21,069 bases of DNA from a virus (IMGVR_UViG_2630968342_000014); one strand, 5' to 3'; counted from the stretch's first letter, positions 9,917 through 21,069 are shown. The notes: generated by a model not told the origin, from the sequence alone. Made by a program: numbers and translations.

Positions 9917-10496
9917 CCACAGTTTTAAGGAGATAGCCGTGGGTAAGCATCACTGGAAAATAGAAAAACAGCCTGAGTGGTACGTGAAAGCTGTCAGAAA
10001 AACTATCGCGGCGTTGCCGGGGGGTTACGCTGAAGCCGCTGACTGGCTGGATGTAACAGAGAACGCTTTATTCAATCGCCTTCGTGCCGATGGCGATCAG
10101 ATTTTCCCGCTGGGATGGGCAATGATTTTACAACGTGCTGGTGGAACTCACTTCATTGCTGACGCTGTGGCGCAGTCTGCAAATGGCGTCTTTGTGTCTC
10201 TTCCTGACGTCGAGGATGTGGACAACGCCGATATTAACCAGCGTCTGCTGGAAGTCATTGAACAGATCGGCAGTTATTCCAGACAGATTCGTTCAGCAAT
10301 CGAAGACGGTGTAGTGGAACCGCATGAGAAGACAGCAATTAACGACGAGCTGTACCTCTCAATTTCGAAGCTCCAGGAGCATGCAGCACTGGTCTACAAA
10401 ATCTTCTGCGCTCCAGAAAATAGTAACGCCCGCGAGTGTGCAGCTCCGGGCGTCGTGGCGTCGATTGCTTCTGGTTGTGGAGAAACTAACGCATGA
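9906..10496 (+). CDS. CII-like regulatory protein (YdaT / phage CP76-type, by position and size)
   Basis: The track ORF starts at TTG 9834; the in-frame ATG at 9906 (MKSNHSFKEIAVGK...) overlaps the cro-like stop. About 196 aa. Immediately downstream of cro as in YdaS/YdaT-type immunity modules. Family assignment from memory. Confidence 0.5.
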   Translation: MKSNHSFKEIAVGKHHWKIEKQPEWYVKAVRKTIAALPGGYAEAADWLDVTENALFNRLRADGDQIFPLGWAMILQRAGGTHFIADAVAQSANGVFVSLPDVEDVDNADINQRLLEVIEQIGSYSRQIRSAIEDGVVEPHEKTAINDELYLSISKLQEHAALVYKIFCAPENSNARECAAPGVVASIASGCGETNA

Positions 10497-10641
10497 ATAG
10501 TTTAACGGCAAATAACCGTTTGTCGCAACAGCTGGTGGTCAGCGTCGCTGAACACCTGTTGTTACGGCATGAATGCAGATTACCAAATCACCTGGCTGTA
10601 AGTAACCACAGAGAACTTTACCTGACTGTGGGGGGCGAGTT

Positions 10642-10821
10642 GTGCAGGAACTTAACCGCTGGTTTCGTGACGGAAGAGGACTTTATGTTCATGTTATTCG
10701 TTGGGAGCCAGAAACACAGCGCGTTATCTATCTTCGCAAAGACTACCCGCATGAGTGCTTTAGTCCTTTGTGGAAATTCAGGCGTGATTTTGTTGAGTGT
10801 GAAGGACCACCAGCATATTGA
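10642..10821 (+). CDS. Possible small ORF (59 aa, GTG start), not in the ORF track
   Basis: Hand translation: VQELNRWFRDGRGLYVHVIRWEPETQRVIYLRKDYPHECFSPLWKFRRDFVECEGPPAY, read from GTG at 10642 with a G-rich Shine-Dalgarno (GGGGGG at 10630-10635). Lies in a 600-bp gap that the track covers only with an implausible N-terminal extension of the rha ORF. Confidence 0.3.
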   Translation: MQELNRWFRDGRGLYVHVIRWEPETQRVIYLRKDYPHECFSPLWKFRRDFVECEGPPAY

Positions 10822-10907
10822 TTCTGCCATTTCGGGACGTTACACTGTCTCTGCACCTTATAAAGCGGGTGCCGGGATTGGCGTCCTGAAATTGATTACT
10901 GAGCATA

Positions 10908-10928
10908 ACCGCGCTCATGCGGTTTTTT
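10908..10928 (+). terminator. Candidate intrinsic terminator (tR1-like position)
   Basis: ACCGC-GCTCAT-GCGGT followed by TTTTTT: 5-bp GC-rich stem, 6-nt loop, U-tract. The reverse strand lacks a U-tract after the stem. Confidence 0.4.
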
Positions 10929-11098
10929 CGTGTCATGAGCATTGCTACGCCCAAATTATGGTGGGGCGTACAGGGCCGACTTCGGTCGGGCCGGGTTCGG
11001 TAGTCTCCGGTAACGCCAACCCTGTACGTCTCACCACCTCTGTGATTGGCGTCCCATGTGGTGAGTTTTCTAAAAAACTGACTACCGGGGCTGTCACT

Positions 11099-11656
11099 AT
11101 GACTACTCTCCCAACCCTCTCTCAACCTGAAATTGCCATCGTTGATGGTCAGGCTGTTACATCTTCTTTGGCTGTTGCTGACTTCTTCTCTAAACGTCAT
11201 GACGATGTTCTGAAAAAGATCCGCATTTTGGATTGTTCTCCAGAGTTTTGTGCCCGCAATTTTGCGGAGACATCAATTTTGGTACGCCAGCCCAACGGCG
11301 GTACTCGCAAACTACCTTGCTATCAAATAACCCGCGATGGCTTCGCGTTCCTTGCTATGGGCTTCACGGGTAAACGTGCTGCCCAGTTCAAAGAGGCATA
11401 CATCAATGCCTTTAACCAGATGGAGAAACAGCTTTCAAATCCCTCTGTACTGAGCGACGTTGCACATAACGCCAGCGTTCTCTATTCCTACATTTCATCA
11501 ATTCATCAGGTCTGGCTGCAGCAGCTTTATCCCATGTTGGCAAAAGCCGAATCCCCGCTGGCTGTAAGTCTGTATGACAGCATCAACGACGCGGCGCTAC
11601 TGGCCAGTCTCATAAATTTGTCGCTGAACCCTTCAGAGGTAAGGGGGCGCAAATGA
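11099..11656 (+). CDS. rha: Rha-family phage regulatory protein
   Basis: The N-terminus from the ATG at 11099 (MTTLPTLSQPEIAIVDGQAVTSSLAVADFFSKRHDDVLKKIRIL...ITRDGFAFLAMGFTGKRAAQFKEAYINAFNQME) matches the Phage_pRha domain pattern. The track ORF 10493-11656 fuses it to an upstream extension that looks non-coding. Confidence 0.8.
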   Translation: MTTLPTLSQPEIAIVDGQAVTSSLAVADFFSKRHDDVLKKIRILDCSPEFCARNFAETSILVRQPNGGTRKLPCYQITRDGFAFLAMGFTGKRAAQFKEAYINAFNQMEKQLSNPSVLSDVAHNASVLYSYISSIHQVWLQQLYPMLAKAESPLAVSLYDSINDAALLASLINLSLNPSEVRGRK

Positions 11657-11877: not shown

Positions 11878-12173
11878 ACTGTTTTCAGTTTGTGTGCGGA
11901 TGTGCTTTCGATAACCCGATTCAGCGCCTGATTATGTTGCGTGTTTTGATGTCGGGTTCTTCAGACGGTGAAGGCGAGAGAGTTATTGATCATCAGGTGC
12001 TTGCTGATTTCTGCTGTTGTTCTAAGCAAGCGATATTCAGGGAAACCCTGGCACTGGAAAGAGCTGGTTATCTTCATATCCGAAAAATTGCAACGCTTAC
12101 TATTGATGCAAAAGCCAGACTACAACCTGCGCGTGGCTACACAATTCTCATGCTGCGGAAGGAGGTTGTATGA
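11874..12173 (+). CDS. Hypothetical small protein, possible winged-helix DNA-binding fold
   Basis: GTG at 11874 with GGAGGTG Shine-Dalgarno; alternative ATG at 11934. The 3' end overlaps the start of the replication gene. Fold guess only. Confidence 0.45.
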   Translation: MNCFQFVCGCAFDNPIQRLIMLRVLMSGSSDGEGERVIDHQVLADFCCCSKQAIFRETLALERAGYLHIRKIATLTIDAKARLQPARGYTILMLRKEVV

Positions 12174-13177
12174 GCCGTTACGCCCCCACACCGGAAGTTA
12201 TGGCTATTGGTCAAATTAATATTTCCGGCAATGTTACACCTGCGACCTGGTGGAAATATATTCGACTACCCAGTGGGCGTCCGGATGCGACGGCTATCGC
12301 TCTGCTTTCAGAGATCGTTTACTGGTACCGCCCGACAGAGGTCAGGGATGAGCACACCGGAGCGTTGCTGGGATATCGCAAGCGTTTTCAGGGCGACAAA
12401 CTGCAAAGAAGCTACCAGGCGTTTGCTGAGCAGTTTGGTTTCGGGAAAAGGGAAACCGCAGATGCGCTGAAGCGTCTGCGCGATGCAGGGTTTATTACTC
12501 TGGATTTACGCACGGTGGAAATGCTCGATGGGGTGAAATGCAGCAATATTTTGTTTGTCGGGATCAACCCACAGGCAATTGCGGCCATCACCACACCTTC
12601 TTCTGTTTCGCCAGAAAGTAACAGCAATAATGCAATCAGCGATACAGCTATTACGTTAAAACGGAACACCCCCCGACGTCATAACGGAACAGGGGATACG
12701 CCGAATGTTGATACAAATACAGAGATTACTACAGAGATTACTACAGAGATTACTACAGAGATTACAACGGAGACTAAAAACACTATTGGCGCATCCGCTG
12801 ACGCGTCTGCACCAGCGCGTTCTGCCCGACAGGAATATTCACCGGAATTTGAACAGGCCTGGCAGGAATATCCCAAACGTGCTGGTGGTAATTCAAAATC
12901 CGCCGCTTTTAAAGCCTGGAAAGCCCGAATCAGGGAAGGTGTGACACCCGAAACCATGCTCGACGGTGTGAAACGCTATGCCGCCTGGGTGCGTGTCTCT
13001 GGAAATACCGGTACCCAGTTCGTGAAGCAGGCGTCGACGTTCTTTGGTCCGGATCGTCATTTCGAAGAATCCTGGGAAGTTCCTGCGGTATCTGCAGTCA
13101 GACGCGAGGACCCGTACTTCAAAGCCAGTTACGACAACGTGGACTACAGCCAGATCCCGGCAGGATTCAGGGGGTGA
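12170..13177 (+). CDS. Phage replication initiation protein (O-like / replisome organiser) containing origin-like iterons
   Basis: ATG at 12170 with GGAGG Shine-Dalgarno. N-terminal DNA-binding-like region and C-terminal FEQAWQEYPKRAGG...AAFKAWKARI motif typical of phage replication-initiator C-termini. Four tandem 12-bp repeats inside the coding sequence, as in lambda O where ori lies within the gene. Confidence 0.7.
   Translation: MSRYAPTPEVMAIGQINISGNVTPATWWKYIRLPSGRPDATAIALLSEIVYWYRPTEVRDEHTGALLGYRKRFQGDKLQRSYQAFAEQFGFGKRETADALKRLRDAGFITLDLRTVEMLDGVKCSNILFVGINPQAIAAITTPSSVSPESNSNNAISDTAITLKRNTPRRHNGTGDTPNVDTNTEITTEITTEITTEITTETKNTIGASADASAPARSARQEYSPEFEQAWQEYPKRAGGNSKSAAFKAWKARIREGVTPETMLDGVKRYAAWVRVSGNTGTQFVKQASTFFGPDRHFEESWEVPAVSAVRREDPYFKASYDNVDYSQIPAGFRG
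12719..12775. repeat. Tandem 12-bp direct repeats (ACAGAGATTACT x4 plus a degenerate fifth): candidate ori iterons
   Basis: Read directly at 12719-12766 with a partial copy to 12775; encodes EITT-EITT-EITT-EITT in the replication protein. Position and periodicity are analogous to the lambda ori iterons within O. Confidence 0.7.
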
Positions 13178-16015: not shown

Positions 16016-17011
16016 GTGACCGTGAGAGCACTACTGACCCCTGAAATCGCCCCGCGTATGGGGATCGTATTGTTCAGGCCAGGTTCAGAGCTGATGCCCC
16101 TGTTTATGCAGGGGCGTGTCCTGCTGGAGCCTGAGCCGGAACGTTATTCATCTTTTGCCAGTGGTGCCGTTCCGGCAGCATCACAACCGCTGGCGGATGA
16201 TCCTGCCGTTCGGGCCGTGTTCCGCCATGAGGCGGTGATCCGTCGTGCTGGTGGCGTGGAATGCCTTGAGAGCTGGTTACTTCGTGAAAAGGGCTGTCAG
16301 TGGCCTCATTCCGACTGGCACAGCGAGAACATGACCACAATGCGGCACGCGCCAGGCGCAATCCGTCTGTGCTGGCACTGTGACAATCTTCTCCGTGACC
16401 AGTTCACGGAACGGCTGGAAGCAATGGCAACGGATAACTGTGCCCGCTGGGTGTTGTCTGTTGTGCGCCGTGATCTTGGTTTTGATGACAGTCACGTTGT
16501 GACAATGCCGGAACTGTGCTGGTGGCTGATTCGTAATGACCTGGCGGATGCCTTACCGGAAAGTGCAGCCCGTAAGGCACTGAGATTACCGAAGCCTGTT
16601 GTGCCGTCTGTCACCCGGGAAAGTGACCTTGTGCCTTCGGTTCCTGCCACCAGCATCATCCAGGATAAAGCGAAAAAGGTGCTGGCGCTGAAAGTGGATC
16701 CGGAGTCGCCGGAGTCTTTTATGTTACGCCCCAAACGTCGCCGCTGGGTTAATGAAAAGTACACGCGCTGGGTTAAGACGCAGCCGTGTGCATGTTGTGG
16801 AAAGCCTGCTGATGATCCCCACCATCTGATAGGCCACGGTCAGGGGGGAATGGGTACAAAAGCGCATGATCTCTTTGTGTTGCCTTTGTGCAGAAAGCAT
16901 CACGACGAGCTGCATGCGGATACCGTGGCATTTGAAGAGAAGTATGGCTCCCAGCTGGAGTTGATATTTCGTTTTATCGATCGTGCGCTGGCAATTGGTG
17001 TGCTGGCCTGA
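16016..17011 (+). CDS. DUF968-like protein with C-terminal HNH-like Cys/His zinc-binding motif
   Basis: C-terminus CACCGKPADDPHHLIGHGQGGMGTKAHDLFVLPLCRKHHDELH resembles the DUF968/HNH-like motif of Nin-region proteins in lambdoid prophages. Start uncertain: GTG at 16016 or 16022 after a GAGGTGA Shine-Dalgarno. Confidence 0.6.
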   Translation: MTVRALLTPEIAPRMGIVLFRPGSELMPLFMQGRVLLEPEPERYSSFASGAVPAASQPLADDPAVRAVFRHEAVIRRAGGVECLESWLLREKGCQWPHSDWHSENMTTMRHAPGAIRLCWHCDNLLRDQFTERLEAMATDNCARWVLSVVRRDLGFDDSHVVTMPELCWWLIRNDLADALPESAARKALRLPKPVVPSVTRESDLVPSVPATSIIQDKAKKVLALKVDPESPESFMLRPKRRRWVNEKYTRWVKTQPCACCGKPADDPHHLIGHGQGGMGTKAHDLFVLPLCRKHHDELHADTVAFEEKYGSQLELIFRFIDRALAIGVLA

Positions 17012-17028
17012 TTTTGTGGAGAAAGTTG

Positions 17029-17385
17029 ATGCGTGATATGTATGAAGTAATGGATCGTTGGGGAGCTTGGGCTGCTTCAGACAATAGCGGAGTGGACTGG
17101 CAGCCGATAGCGGCTGGTTTCAAGGGACTTTTACCTCATGGCAAAAAGTCACGGATTCAGTGTGATGATGACGAAGGCATCATGATAGACAGTTGTGTGG
17201 CTCGGTTGAGAAGGTATAAACCAGAGGAATATGAGCTCATCATCGCCCACTTTGTTATCGGTATCTCATTACGTACTATTGCGAAGAAGAGAAAATGCTC
17301 TGATGGCACAATTAGGAAGGAACTGCAAACTGCAATGGGGTTTGTTGACGGCTGTTTAGCAATGTTAGCTTATAGTATGGCATAA
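17029..17385 (+). CDS. Q: Late-gene antiterminator Q (small Q family)
   Basis: The ATG at 17029 has a GGAGAAAG Shine-Dalgarno (the track starts at TTG 17014). Motifs MDRWGAWAA, IAAGFKG, QCDDDEG and KCSDGTIRKELQ match the small Q-antiterminator family of phage 21/Rac-type prophages as I recall them. Confidence 0.8.
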   Translation: MRDMYEVMDRWGAWAASDNSGVDWQPIAAGFKGLLPHGKKSRIQCDDDEGIMIDSCVARLRRYKPEEYELIIAHFVIGISLRTIAKKRKCSDGTIRKELQTAMGFVDGCLAMLAYSMA

Positions 17386-18579
17386 AAAATAAAATAGATT
17401 TACTGCCGATTTTTCAAAAAAGACTGGGAACTGTTTATATCCAACGTAAATAAGGCCTCCATAAAACATGGCTGATGCGAGATATTTAACAGTTCTCATC
17501 CTTTTTTTAGCTTTATCAATCAAACCTGTAATGCTACTCTTAATACTATCTGCATTATCTTTGATTTCTTTATTTTCTTCAAACTTTAAATACTTATCGA
17601 AAGCGGACTCCACTCGAGAACGTAAGTTGTCGAATGTTTCATTGAATATCTCAATAGAAATGTAATTGACTTTTTTTATCATCCAAAGTCCTGCGATAAT
17701 CAATATTGCTTCGGTTGTTTCATTAGCCTTCACTAAGCCACCAGCAGCTATTAATGCACCGGGAATAGTCAATGCTTTTGTCTGATTAGATGATATGAAT
17801 TCGTTAATTTTACTCGTGAACTCAAGATTTTTCTCATCGAGTTCGTTAAGAATTTTATTTACAGAAAACCTCTTTGTGTAAATCTCATATAGTTCATCAT
17901 ATTTTTTCCTGACGAGTTCAGTAGAGTTAAGCAAGTCAAAGAAATTGAACGTACCATTTGCTTTAAATACTTCGTTTATGGCTGAGCGTATAACGAGCTT
18001 GCGCTCGCTTTTGTGTAAATCATTGATTTTTATTGTGTCGAGAAGCTCCTTTATAATTTCATATTTAAGAGACGAGTTCGATAAGCGATTAATCTCGCTA
18101 TATTGTAAAAAATGCGTGAGTTCGACTGTATAACTTTTGTCTTCATTGGTGAAAAATAAGACAGAGCAGTCACTGTTATGATGATCAGCAATTAATGAAA
18201 GGATATCTTTCCACATAAAGAAAATATGGATTTTTTCGATGCTTTCATTCTTAGAAGTAGGGAGTATTAACGGCGTTCCGATGATATAATTTTTCGGAAG
18301 AGCGTTTTGGGTGTTTACTCTAGACCAAAAAGACTCAACATTCTCATAAATTATAGCGTCATCCCAAGATGAAGCTTGGCGATCTAGCCAAATTTCATTA
18401 TTTTCGATGCAGGTTGTTGCCTTTTTATAACCTATAGATTGTAACAGTCTAATTATTTCAGAACTATTTACAATAACAATGCTTTCTTCAAGACTTATGA
18501 CAGTGTAGTAGCCCTCAACTCTGCTTGAGGCTCCGTTAATAATCTGCGCTAATCTTGATAAGTCATCAGCAATTGTCAT
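17365..18579 (-). CDS. Membrane protein (404 aa): about 265-aa soluble N-terminal domain plus C-terminal transmembrane segments; second gene of the AT-rich cassette
   Basis: The ATG at 18579 lies 2 nt after the upstream stop (coupled). Hydrophobic stretches ALTIPGALIAAGGLV, AILIIAGLWMI and YLASAMFYGGLIYVGY near the C-terminus. AT-rich. The 3' end overlaps the 3' end of Q by 21 bp (convergent). Confidence 0.65.
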   Translation of the reverse strand: MTIADDLSRLAQIINGASSRVEGYYTVISLEESIVIVNSSEIIRLLQSIGYKKATTCIENNEIWLDRQASSWDDAIIYENVESFWSRVNTQNALPKNYIIGTPLILPTSKNESIEKIHIFFMWKDILSLIADHHNSDCSVLFFTNEDKSYTVELTHFLQYSEINRLSNSSLKYEIIKELLDTIKINDLHKSERKLVIRSAINEVFKANGTFNFFDLLNSTELVRKKYDELYEIYTKRFSVNKILNELDEKNLEFTSKINEFISSNQTKALTIPGALIAAGGLVKANETTEAILIIAGLWMIKKVNYISIEIFNETFDNLRSRVESAFDKYLKFEENKEIKDNADSIKSSITGLIDKAKKRMRTVKYLASAMFYGGLIYVGYKQFPVFFEKSAVNLFYFLCHTIS

Positions 18580-18581
18580 TA

Positions 18582-19757
18582 TTAGCTGTCTCTATATCTT
18601 TTGAGTTCATCATAATTTGCCTGACTCAATTTTATCACAATTTCGCATTTGTTGTCAGTGAGAATTACAGGCTTATTTGACTTTTCGTCTCCAATAGCTC
18701 CACGCATTATTTTCAACTTAAAATTATTGTCGTTATCTGCCACTTCAATTGTAAGCGCGCTTTCAGCTGCTTTAGGAGTTGGTTCAAATTGAGGGTCAAT
18801 CTGGAAACCATTAAGATTAACAAAATCGACAAACGTTCCCTTACATTTGTGTGAATCAGTCAGGCATGAGTCAATTATTTTTGAAATATCCTCTATCTTA
18901 ACGGACTTATTTCCGTGTTTATCTTTTGATTTTTTTTCCAGTAAGGATTTAACTTCATTGTCAATAGTATCACGCAGTACACGACCGAGTGAGTTTTTAC
19001 TAGCAAAAATATCTATAGCACTGAATAATTGCTGAATGCTTCTTTTATTGTCCGAATCATGTCGGCAACCTAATGAGTCTTTGAAAAAATCGCTTTTAGA
19101 TTTACCTTGCAAGAAATGTACATATGAGTCACCCTTGTTTTCTGGATAACTGGCTTCGAATAAAGTTAAATCGAACATCGCAGCCTGCCGTAAGGCATCG
19201 GTATTAATTGGATTTAATCTTGTTGGGGTCAACTTATCCGAATCAAAGTCATAGGCGCTTTGTTTATCAACCATTACGATTAGAAGTTTCCCCAAATCCT
19301 CTGGTTCGGTAGACTTATAGTGGATGAAAACAACGCTCCCCCCCTGAAGTTGGGCAACTCTCGATTCGTTATTAGCATTATGTTTAAGCTTCTCTATTAT
19401 AGCTCTAGATAAATCAATGAATTCATTATTTTTATTAATGTATTTTTTTAGGATCGTAGGAATGGATGAAGGGTTGTGATCTGAGTCTAGGAAGTTATGA
19501 AATTTGTTTTTTCGGCTAAATTTTTTCTCAATTCTGGTTATGAATTCAGATGTGACTTCATTTTTTAGATCCCAAACTTCACCTAATCGATAATCAAATG
19601 CTCTTGAATCATTTTTTTCAAGATTTGCTGTTACAGCACCAATAGGAAAGTACGATTGTTTGCCCAGCACTACAACATGAGGCGTGGCACCGCATTTATC
19701 GCAAGCTACAGTTGGGTCGTCAAGAACATTGCCACATTCTAAACAAGTTATATCCAT
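18582..19757 (-). CDS. Zinc-ribbon plus NdpA/YejK-like (nucleoid-associated protein family) domain protein; first gene of the AT-rich cassette
   Basis: ATG at 19757. N-terminal C-x2-C-x12-C-x2-C zinc ribbon (CLECGNVLDDPTVACDKCG). Central region GGSVVFIHY...LLIVMVD...YVHFLQGKSKSDFFKDSLG parallels the E. coli YejK/NdpA blocks GGFVLFCHY...YLTFLKG...DFFMDFLG, recalled from memory. Strongly AT-rich with A/T-ending codons. Confidence 0.65.
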   Translation of the reverse strand: MDITCLECGNVLDDPTVACDKCGATPHVVVLGKQSYFPIGAVTANLEKNDSRAFDYRLGEVWDLKNEVTSEFITRIEKKFSRKNKFHNFLDSDHNPSSIPTILKKYINKNNEFIDLSRAIIEKLKHNANNESRVAQLQGGSVVFIHYKSTEPEDLGKLLIVMVDKQSAYDFDSDKLTPTRLNPINTDALRQAAMFDLTLFEASYPENKGDSYVHFLQGKSKSDFFKDSLGCRHDSDNKRSIQQLFSAIDIFASKNSLGRVLRDTIDNEVKSLLEKKSKDKHGNKSVKIEDISKIIDSCLTDSHKCKGTFVDFVNLNGFQIDPQFEPTPKAAESALTIEVADNDNNFKLKIMRGAIGDEKSNKPVILTDNKCEIVIKLSQANYDELKRYRDS

Positions 19758-19875
19758 TATATATCCCGAATTATAAGAATGAATTTTTATGTGGCTGAAA
19801 ATTCTATCAAAACACTAACGCGTACGCAAAAAGTATTGTATTGTGTTAAGAGTGGTTACTTCGCCACACAACTTA

Positions 19876-19899
19876 AACCCGCCACTGAGCGGGTTTTTT
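19876..19899 (+). terminator. Intrinsic terminator (plus-strand orientation)
   Basis: AACCCGC-CACTGA-GCGGGTT followed by TTTTTTG: 7-bp stem, 6-nt loop, run of six T. The reverse orientation has only a 3-U tract. Confidence 0.6.
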
Positions 19900-20023
19900 G
19901 TACCTGTAAACTTGGTGCAGTACAGTAAACACGCTGGTGGTCGTGAATACTGGCTTTTTATCTTGCTGGCTTTTTAGACAAGAGTTATTGGTATGTCACG
20001 TTAACCGGAAAGGGTAAAAAGAC

Positions 20024-20221
20024 ATGCTGAAACAGCAGGATATGACAGAAACCGCCAGAGTTGTGTTTGATGAATTAAGCGTTACCGAACCGGCGACAGT
20101 CGGGGAGATTGCGCAGAATACTTACCTTTCACGCGAACGCTGCCAGTTAATACTGACCCAGCTTGTTATGGCGGGTCTGGCAGACTATCAGTGCGGTTGT
20201 TACAGACGCCTTCAGTCCTGA
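20024..20221 (+). CDS. Small winged-helix-like regulator (65 aa), possibly PapI/FaeA-like
   Basis: ATG at 20024. TVGEIAQNTYLSRERCQLILTQLVMAGL resembles small wHTH regulators. A stem-loop with T-run (GCCTTC-AGTCCT-GAAGGC-TTTTTATTT, about 20207-20234) overlaps the stop. Family guess is low confidence. Confidence 0.45.
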   Translation: MLKQQDMTETARVVFDELSVTEPATVGEIAQNTYLSRERCQLILTQLVMAGLADYQCGCYRRLQS

Positions 20222-20355
20222 AGGCTTTTTATTTGTGGTGAATGGGCGGCTGGTGGGGGGGCGACACCTGTCAGTCCTTTGCTTATGTGTTGATGATAAT
20301 TTACCTTTTGGGGCTATAATTGAGCTAACCAATTGCTAATGAAAGTAAAATTATA

Positions 20356-21069
20356 ATGGCTGTTGTCTGTTCAGTTATCATGGTTTGCTCCCCAATTAAT
20401 ATTTTTCTTGAAAAGGATACGTTGTCACTTAAGCCAGGCTCAGTTGTTCTGGCCACCAAATGCATCAGGGAGCTTTTCCTTATGCATTATGGCAAAGTTA
20501 AAATTGTCGATATAAGCGAATCCGTCGTAAGTCAATATCTGGAAAGTCAGCATAAGCTGACGAGGACTCGTCTGACTGACATTCCGCTTTACCTGTTGCT
20601 GGAACCCAACAATCCTGCGTTGGCTGCGGCTTTAATTACCAGCCAGGGATTTTCCGGAGAGGCCACGGATATGTTTCTTATGATGGCCTGCCTGTCTCTG
20701 TTTGAAACAGATGAACGGATGTCATTGTTTTTAAGTGGATGTTTATCCAGCATAAGTGCCAAAGTCAGGGCGATAATTCAGACAGATATATCAGCAAGCT
20801 GGACGCTTGGTGCGATTGCTCTACAGTTGCATATGAGTGAGAGTTTGTTAAAGACAAAACTGAAAAATGAAGGGGGCATGTTCAGTCGCTTGTTGCTGGA
20901 AGAGCGGATGCGTGTTGCTGTAAATATGTTATGTTCCCGGCATGGATATGGACAGGCTATAGCAGAAAAATGCGGTTATTCAAGCAGGTCCTACTTTATT
21001 TCTGTATTTCACCGCTATTATGGCTTCCCGCCAGACAGATATGTATCCAGGCAAGGGCTTGATTATTGA
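20356..21069 (+). CDS. AraC-family transcriptional regulator, EnvY/AppY-like
   Basis: C-terminal double-HTH: RAIIQTDISASWTLGAIALQLHMSESLLKTKLKNEGGMFSRLLLEERMRVAVNMLCSRHGYGQAIAEKCGYSSRSYFISVFHRYYGFPP closely parallels EnvY/AppY as recalled (IIQSDIQHYW...LLKKKLKNE...CGYSSTSYFISVFK). N-terminus MAVVCSVIMVC parallels AppY MDYVCSVVFIC. Stop codon at the window end. Confidence 0.8.
   Translation: MAVVCSVIMVCSPINIFLEKDTLSLKPGSVVLATKCIRELFLMHYGKVKIVDISESVVSQYLESQHKLTRTRLTDIPLYLLLEPNNPALAAALITSQGFSGEATDMFLMMACLSLFETDERMSLFLSGCLSSISAKVRAIIQTDISASWTLGAIALQLHMSESLLKTKLKNEGGMFSRLLLEERMRVAVNMLCSRHGYGQAIAEKCGYSSRSYFISVFHRYYGFPPDRYVSRQGLDY

Follow-up and report, generated by a model that had tools for sequence, protein, structure and literature searches.

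The window analysed here, a stretch of 21,069 nt of viral DNA (IMGVR_UViG_2630968342_000014), ends in a gene for a 237-aa AraC/XylS-type regulator, which runs on the plus strand from an ATG start at 20356 to a stop codon that ends on the last base of the window (21069). We conclude, with a probability of roughly 0.85, that this gene is an allele of psrB, i.e., that it encodes a prophage-borne AraC/XylS activator of the group that includes GadW, YdeO, AppY, and PatE, and that it is carried as a self-contained cargo cassette in the late leader. The regulator is of an already known kind, and the window adds one more psr allele; Psr regulators ("prophage-encoded secretion regulators") are established prophage cargo through which the GAD circuit of acid resistance in the host is rewired and type III secretion is indirectly repressed. 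An earlier note on this DNA had described the two plus-strand open reading frames (ORFs) at its end, one of 65 aa with an ATG start (20024-20221) and the 237-aa gene (20356-21069), as a cargo regulator pair that consists of a small winged helix-turn-helix (wHTH) protein and an EnvY/AppY-like AraC regulator. Both ORFs are present as placed and the longer one is indeed an AraC regulator carried by a prophage, as borne out by its Pfam matches; a role in lysogenic conversion, which the earlier note had also raised, is plausible for this gene, which has a cargo position in the late region.

With regard to domain content, Pfam matches to HTH_AraC (2.4e-13, in two stretches) and HTH_18 (5.8e-10) fall within residues 155-230 of the 237-aa protein, which carries two AraC HTH motifs; the structure of the GadX DNA-binding domain (3mkl) matches residues 134-233 (7e-19), and the match to PHROG_1450 has an E value of 1.5e-98. 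The best NCBIfam families are YdeO (4e-31, residues 1-229, i.e., full length) and GadX (1.2e-24); since both scores are far under the equivalog cutoffs (108.5 bits versus 348 for YdeO and 87 versus 500 for GadX), the protein is not an orthologue of either. An N-terminal VCSV motif that is common to YdeO, AppY, GadW, and PatE (TCSV in PatE) supports the start codon of the 237-aa ORF. Protein cluster names were generic, with no "PsrB" label among them.

Direct comparison with the O157:H7 copies is more specific. The window protein is 98.7% identical to the OI-57 copy in strain ATCC 43894, the single AraC-family gene in the sequenced part of that prophage, with all 237 residues compared; the three differences (A103V, H196Y, and I202V) are conservative, and the two genes share 99.2% nucleotide identity. 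Identity to ECs_1087 of strain Sakai is 90.7%, again over 237 of 237 residues, and the two O157 copies are likewise 90.7% identical to one another, in agreement with the published identity of 90% between PsrA and PsrB. The ATCC 43894 prophage that carries the 99.2% copy lies beside ydfJ and has three NleG/DUF1076 genes at its end; because these landmarks match the described OI-57, which carries PsrB (z2104) plus NleG2-3/6-2/5-2 (PMC8565820; PMC10877973), we assigned this copy, and with it the window gene, to PsrB. ECs_1087 is named psrA in PMC13502914 (2026), where it is placed in prophage Sp4, and it sits in the same gene arrangement as the window gene; the 237-aa psrA ORF is present in the Sp4 region of Sakai (1165000-1205000), for which the annotation gives only 195 aa with a later start.

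E. coli FORC_069 has, between yecE and yecD, a lambdoid prophage with int, Q, lysis, and tail genes to which the window is 100% identical. There, the AraC gene is followed after 28 nt by tRNA-Ile, tRNA-Arg, and tRNA-Arg, then by a SASA-family esterase gene of the nanS-p type, and further on by the genes for lysis, head, and tail; the annotation of the entire FORC_069 prophage shows no stx, type III secretion system (T3SS) effector, or pch gene. The loci of PsrB (z2104, OI-57/CP-933O) and PsrA (ecs1087, Sp4), both of which encode proteins of 237 aa, resemble the window locus in that a small ORF, a terminator, the psr gene, and then tRNA-Ile/Arg follow one another in a lambdoid late leader, with the same conserved promoter-like site upstream of psr. 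Compared to the O157 PsrA and PsrB prophages, the window prophage differs in its location at yecE/yecD, in lacking stx and T3SS effectors, and in carrying a DS-1 cassette after Q.

Published work shows that PsrA and PsrB both induce gadE and yhiF and also activate hdeA, that PsrB increases acid resistance and is reported to bind directly to the promoters of gadE and hdeA, and that PsrA and PsrB repress type III secretion encoded by the enterocyte effacement locus (LEE) indirectly, through GadE and YhiF (PMC10877973; PMC8565820). Phenotypes of psrA deletion have been reported in O157:H7 (PMC10877973; PMC8565820), and psrA transcript levels are regulated in uninduced O157:H7 strain Sakai (PMC13502914). 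The paper on the HnrS small RNA (sRNA) has no link to the present locus other than psrA as a responsive gene.

Between Q and the regulator gene, the window has the elements of a late leader. The Q antiterminator gene (17014..17385, plus strand, 123 aa) matches PHROG_79 ("anti-termination protein Q-like", 3.3e-50) and has the RefSeq label "antiterminator Q family protein". The placement of the regulator "downstream of Q" in the earlier note is correct in that Q lies upstream, but the two are not adjacent, as a 2.4-kb reverse-strand cassette (17365-19757) intervenes. Past this cassette, a block at 19815..19876 (plus strand), directly 5' of a terminator, aligns only with loci of the same Q family (Sakai Sp4, Stx2a_1447, and phiP27), and the motif GTTAAGAGTGGTTA is found in four of four loci of this family, whereas every locus with another Q family lacks it. 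The block is likely the pR'/Q-utilisation (qut) region. A σ70 consensus scan called no promoter from the DS-1 cassette to the small ORF, and a manual search for -35 and -10 elements gave weak candidates only; the candidate pR' is thus placed from comparative evidence. The terminator that follows (CCCGCCACTGAGCGGG then T6; 19877..19902, plus strand) has a predicted fold of -20.1 kcal/mol (z=-3.5), shows a conserved stem and a variable loop in seven of seven aligned prophages, and aligns with a rho-independent terminator that is annotated in phage SfV, 107 nt past Q; on the basis of its strength, its stem conservation, and the SfV alignment, we read it as the equivalent of tR' in the late leaders of lambdoid and Shiga toxin (Stx) phages (PMC7547250). 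If pR' is indeed located in this block, a lysogen should make a short terminated transcript (~45-60 nt), a counterpart to StxS, an sRNA of Stx phages.

A second intrinsic terminator (GCCTTCAGTCCTGAAGGC then TTTTTATTTG; 20208..20235 on the plus strand, with the hairpin at 20208-20225 followed by a T run) overlaps the stop codon of the small ORF. Its stem is kept and its loop is variable in six of six aligned loci, both those with an AraC gene and those with a DNA methylase gene; contrary to the earlier note, the two ORFs therefore do not share an upstream region, since this terminator splits the small ORF from the AraC gene. Homology between psr and methylase loci ends between ~20272 and 20295. 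A promoter-like site (ATGATA-16-TATAAT, 20293..20320, plus strand) that matches the consensus at 10 of 12 positions lies within the psr-specific part; it is kept in four of four psr loci and is missing from methylase loci. The 5' part of the psrB cassette is AT-rich (GC 0.40). The order of the locus is Q, a first cargo slot (here occupied by DS-1), the candidate pR' with tR', the small ORF and its terminator, and a second cargo slot that here holds psrB and usually holds a DNA methylase gene, followed by tRNA-Ile/Arg/Arg, the nanS-p esterase gene, and the lysis genes.

This layout suggests how psrB may be expressed. In the lysogen, psrB would be transcribed from its own promoter, since two terminators lie upstream; upon induction, neither terminator would stop RNA polymerase once modified by Q, and psrB would be co-transcribed with the late genes. 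As the 28-nt gap between psrB and the first tRNA gene is too small for a terminator, the psrB promoter may also drive the tRNAs.

A number of points weigh against the assignment to psrB or limit its precision. The function proposed for the window allele would be carried over through near-identity to PsrB as reviews summarise it, and the putative psrB promoter is a consensus match only, in a region with 14 promoter-like sites versus 12.6 expected. The location of psrA is given inconsistently, as z1789 in OI-50 (CP-933N) in the reviews and as ecs1087 in Sp4 in PMC13502914, and we found no AraC gene in the OI-50 region of ATCC 43894 (1626000-1675000); the A/B label is hence less certain than membership in the Psr family. 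Assignment to PsrB also depends on ATCC 43894 being colinear with EDL933, and the description of the regulator as the only AraC-family gene in OI-57 applies to the sequenced part, to the right of the left 45 kb. Finally, the tail-fibre end of the window prophage is devoid of T3SS effector genes, in contrast to the psr loci that have been described; according to Tree et al., as cited in PMC10877973, psr prophages also carry T3SS effector loci and Pch regulators. As the association with effectors and pch is not a property of the protein, however, their absence does not exclude Psr membership.

Two other readings of the AraC gene were weighed against the psrB assignment. The likeness to EnvY and AppY proposed in the earlier note would make the gene a regulator of envelope, porin, and anaerobic-respiration genes (of the hya, app, and ompC/F type) rather than of the GAD genes. 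A tblastn search of K-12 does detect both proteins, AppY over the full length (29% identity, 236 aa, E 4e-27) and EnvY over the C-terminal half (40% over 138 aa, E 1.5e-21); AppY of prophage DLP12 is, like the window protein, a prophage-borne AraC/XylS protein with the VCSV motif, and AppY itself activates gadE and acid-resistance genes; AppY, PatE, and PsrB have been discussed jointly as prophage AraC regulators that feed the AR2 acid-resistance system (PMC10057817). The regulons of this AraC group thus overlap, and the proposed likeness holds for the broad GadW/YdeO/AppY group. It does not hold for AppY or EnvY in particular, which are among the most distant relatives tested: identity to the window protein is 37% for PatE (full length), 37% for GadX (C-terminal), 35% for YdeO, 34% for GadW, 32% for EnvY, and, lowest of all, 29% for AppY, compared to 98.7% for PsrB and 90.7% for PsrA, whose published targets are gadE, yhiF, and hdeA (PMC10877973; PMC8565820). 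In addition, AppY is located beyond the tail-fibre genes and not in a late leader, EnvY matches in its C-terminal half only, and envY, named among prophage-borne regulators in the earlier note, falls outside the annotated DLP12 boundary in K-12. PatE (z0321, CP-933H/Sp1; Sakai ECs_0287) is also a prophage AraC/XylS regulator and activates gadE and hdeAB, but it belongs to a distinct subfamily and is found beside an insertion sequence element in the terminal part of a degraded prophage, not in a late leader; GadW, GadX, and YdeO of E. coli K-12 share family and domain plan with the window protein and are chromosomal, whereas the window gene is phage-borne. We consider a regulon of the EnvY/AppY type without a GAD component highly improbable. 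The other reading, namely that psrB is effectively silent in the lysogen, through termination upstream and xenogeneic silencing, and is a late Q-dependent passenger with little effect on the host, is also unlikely, although several features are consistent with it: the gene lies past tR', in the unit that carries stx in P27, Stx2a_1447, and phiSTEC1575, where cargo is known to depend on Q antitermination (PMC7547250), and the 5' part of the cassette is AT-rich. Against silence stand the conserved promoter-like site within the cassette as well as the deletion phenotypes and the regulated transcripts of psrA reported in uninduced O157:H7.

The window AraC gene is widespread. The complete E. coli records that have it at 99% nucleotide identity or above number 595 and cover, among others, O157:H7, O145, O111, and O104:H4, and at most 1444 places in 830 complete E. 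coli genomes match it, all but one of which (1443 of 1444) are chromosomal; typical O157:H7 genomes have two such places. At 80% identity or more, a psrA/B-type gene is present in ~727 complete E. coli records. An identical psrB-type gene occurs on stx-negative, effector-less prophages and in O104:H4 genomes. The O104:H4 lineage is not known to carry the LEE, and repression of LEE would thus have no target there; in such LEE-negative hosts, only the acid-resistance arm would matter, and the selective value of psrB on effector-less prophages and in O104:H4 would come from acid resistance and not from secretion control. In E. coli 2014C-4135 (3386441-3395140), we also observed a 241-aa Psr homologue with 60% identity, downstream of the phage tRNAs, with the remnant of a methylase gene and a tolA-like gene beside it. 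This is the position of stx in Stx phages, and more than one slot of the late region is thus open to Psr-type genes.

The 65-aa ORF encodes a real conserved protein. It matches PHROG_331, a family of unknown function, at 6e-37, and homologues with 77-98% identity and 25 invariant columns are found in Escherichia, Shigella, Salmonella, Klebsiella, Citrobacter, and Buttiauxella. The Prokaryotic Genome Annotation Pipeline names it "TrmB family transcriptional regulator"; the Pfam TrmB match has E=0.003 and 17.8 bits, below the cutoff of 25.6, with DprA_WH, MarR_2, and HTH_20 weaker still (E 0.03-0.06); there was no NCBIfam match, and a PDB profile search found nothing under E=0.1. In an AlphaFold2 model with a mean confidence (pLDDT) of 81, helices span residues 4-18, 26-32, and 37-49, and a fourth helix (53-60) replaces the wing; the top Foldseek matches of this model are wHTH proteins (AF1382, PefI, MarR, and PcaR) with template modelling (TM) scores of 0.55-0.66, all at E≥0.4. 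The wHTH fold that had been proposed for this small protein is hence plausible but only weakly supported, given the sub-cutoff TrmB score and the Foldseek E values. Among related phages, the P27 protein L23 and the Stx2a_1447 copy (both PHROG_331) are 94-97% identical to the window protein in amino acid sequence; for SfV orf47, also PHROG_331, the only figure measured is a nucleotide identity of 87% over the module. Like the window ORF, orf47 and L23 lie directly past the post-Q terminator (in SfV, the order is Q, terminator, orf47, orf48, S/R/Rz), and all are annotated as unknown or hypothetical.

The ORF is part of a module of ~440 bp that consists of terminator, leader, ORF, and second terminator. 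Of 5426 complete E. coli genomes, 2853 (53%) contain this module, with a total of 5343 places and as many as 8 copies, and many Stx phages have it as well; in P27, Stx2a_1447, and SfV, it is followed by a DNA methylase gene, not by an AraC gene. Among IMG/VR loci sampled by a pattern scan anchored on the invariant leader (at least 120 contigs), 89 were classed by downstream gene; the small ORF is followed by a methylase gene in ~75 of these 89 and by an AraC gene in 6, and in a few it leads straight into TerB or nanS-p.

We conclude that the 65-aa ORF, which opens the late-operon leader in many lambdoid and Stx phages, is a backbone gene of the late leader and not a dedicated partner of psr, contrary to the earlier description of a cargo regulator pair. 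That the small protein might control psr or co-regulate with it is a reading that could draw on the contiguity of leader module and AraC gene in 726 records, essentially all of the ~727 with a psrA/B-type gene, as well as on the conservation of the small protein and the fold matches to small wHTH regulators such as PefI. A fixed insertion slot accounts for this adjacency, however, and functional pairing appears distinctly unlikely: the small ORF is found ~4 times more often without the AraC gene, usually before a methylase gene and also directly before nanS-p; the conserved terminator separates the two genes; the Psr homologue with 60% identity is located downstream of tRNAs, away from the small ORF; and, upstream of psrA in Sakai Sp4, a 1-nt deletion frameshifts the small ORF at codon 50, yet the psrA transcript still responds to regulation in Sakai. 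A further proposal concerned two direct repeats (CTGGCTTTTTA), which are present as exact plus-strand copies at 19950..19960 and 19966..19976 and could be read as an operator pair that controls the small ORF, the AraC gene, or both. Their centres are 16 nt apart, i.e., ~1.5 helical turns, and the copies hence lie on different faces of the helix; copy 2, conserved as CTGGCTTTTT[A/C], is kept in six of seven aligned loci, hardly varies among IMG/VR loci, and lies directly against an invariant block of 35 nt. By contrast, copy 1 differs in most relatives, where it reads CCGGTCTTTCA, CTGACCTTTTA, CAGGTCTTTCA, or CGAGGCTTTCA in the aligned prophages; its exact window form is found in 8 of the tabulated IMG/VR leaders, and CTGACTTTTTA or C[CT][GT]GTCTTTCA is commoner, such that the perfect repeat is a minority allele. 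In Stx2a_1447, a 10-nt deletion removes copy 2, as slippage would produce. A first-order Markov model predicts 0.14 cases per window of an exact 11-mer that recurs within 11-30 nt, with at least one in 9.8% of the simulated windows, and the window has a second, unrelated 11-mer repeat at 16742/16766. The repeat is also T-rich and resembles a terminator tail (19933-19954 plus TTTTTATCTT is listed as terminator-like), and both a terminator and a separate promoter lie between it and the AraC gene. The repeats are thus not supported as paired regulatory sites, and an operator pair is very unlikely; local duplication or slippage within the conserved leader is the most likely origin of this 11-base variant.

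The block that follows the repeats (GACAAGAGTTATTGGTATGTCACGTTAACCGGAAA, 19977..20011, plus strand) is the best conserved part of the leader: almost every column is invariant in an alignment of seven divergent prophages, including CP-933N, which is without the small ORF, and its exact pattern is found in at least 120 IMG/VR contigs. We found no clear promoter in this block. As the leader (19905-20023) folds no better than shuffled sequences (z=-0.23), we dropped the reading of a structured RNA; in Rfam searches of the whole window (gathering thresholds) and of 19700-21069 (E≤1), the region of interest here gave no RNA family, and its only matches, of STnc130 and P9 to the terminator hairpin, were sub-threshold. 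It is conceivable, though improbable, that the PHROG_331 protein and the 19977-20011 block form an uncharacterised late-leader control device that acts during lysogeny. If so, such a device would set the transcription or translation that reaches the cargo that follows, namely psr, DNA methylase, and the ileZ/argN/argO tRNAs, and stx in P27, Stx2a_1447, and phiSTEC1575. Our search found no description of a function for the PHROG_331 leader module.

The first cargo slot is occupied in the window by a two-gene DS-1 anti-phage cassette on the minus strand (17365..19757), with NCBIfam matches DS1_2 (2.8e-112) and DS1_1 (2.1e-135) that are both above their cutoffs; it encodes a YejK/NA37 nucleoid-associated protein and its partner. 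The cassette has a GC content of 0.31-0.36, compared to ~0.5 in the flanking phage genes, and its 3' end overlaps the stop codon of Q by 21 nt. None of the four proteins, the DS-1 pair included, is covered by a PADLOC (2023) model. Since the space from Q to the late leader is filled differently in related prophages of this Q type (a CAAX protease gene in Sakai Sp4 and unknown reverse-strand genes in Stx2a_1447), this position looks like an exchangeable slot for cargo or defence genes. The locus clearly shows two exchangeable cargo slots between Q and the lysis genes, arranged around a conserved leader, with defence genes in the first and psr or methylase in the second. With regard to annotation, the RefSeq record of FORC_069 breaks an intact 391-aa DS-1 ORF into two overlapping coding sequences.

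Elsewhere in the window, two RNA families were matched by Rfam at gathering level, both on the plus strand and both within a Rha/Ant-like ORF (10493-11656): the isrK Hfq-binding RNA (10853-10929, 59 bits) and the C4 antisense RNA (10954-11041, 82 bits). Judged by these matches, 10853-11041 would be a C4-icd-ant immunity module of the P1/P7 type on a lambdoid prophage. In the replication region, an ORF (12170-13177) that is annotated as a helix-turn-helix protein contains ~4 tandem copies of a 12-nt repeat (TACAGAGATTAC) at 12718-12766; this repeat looks like a set of origin iterons embedded in a replication initiator gene.

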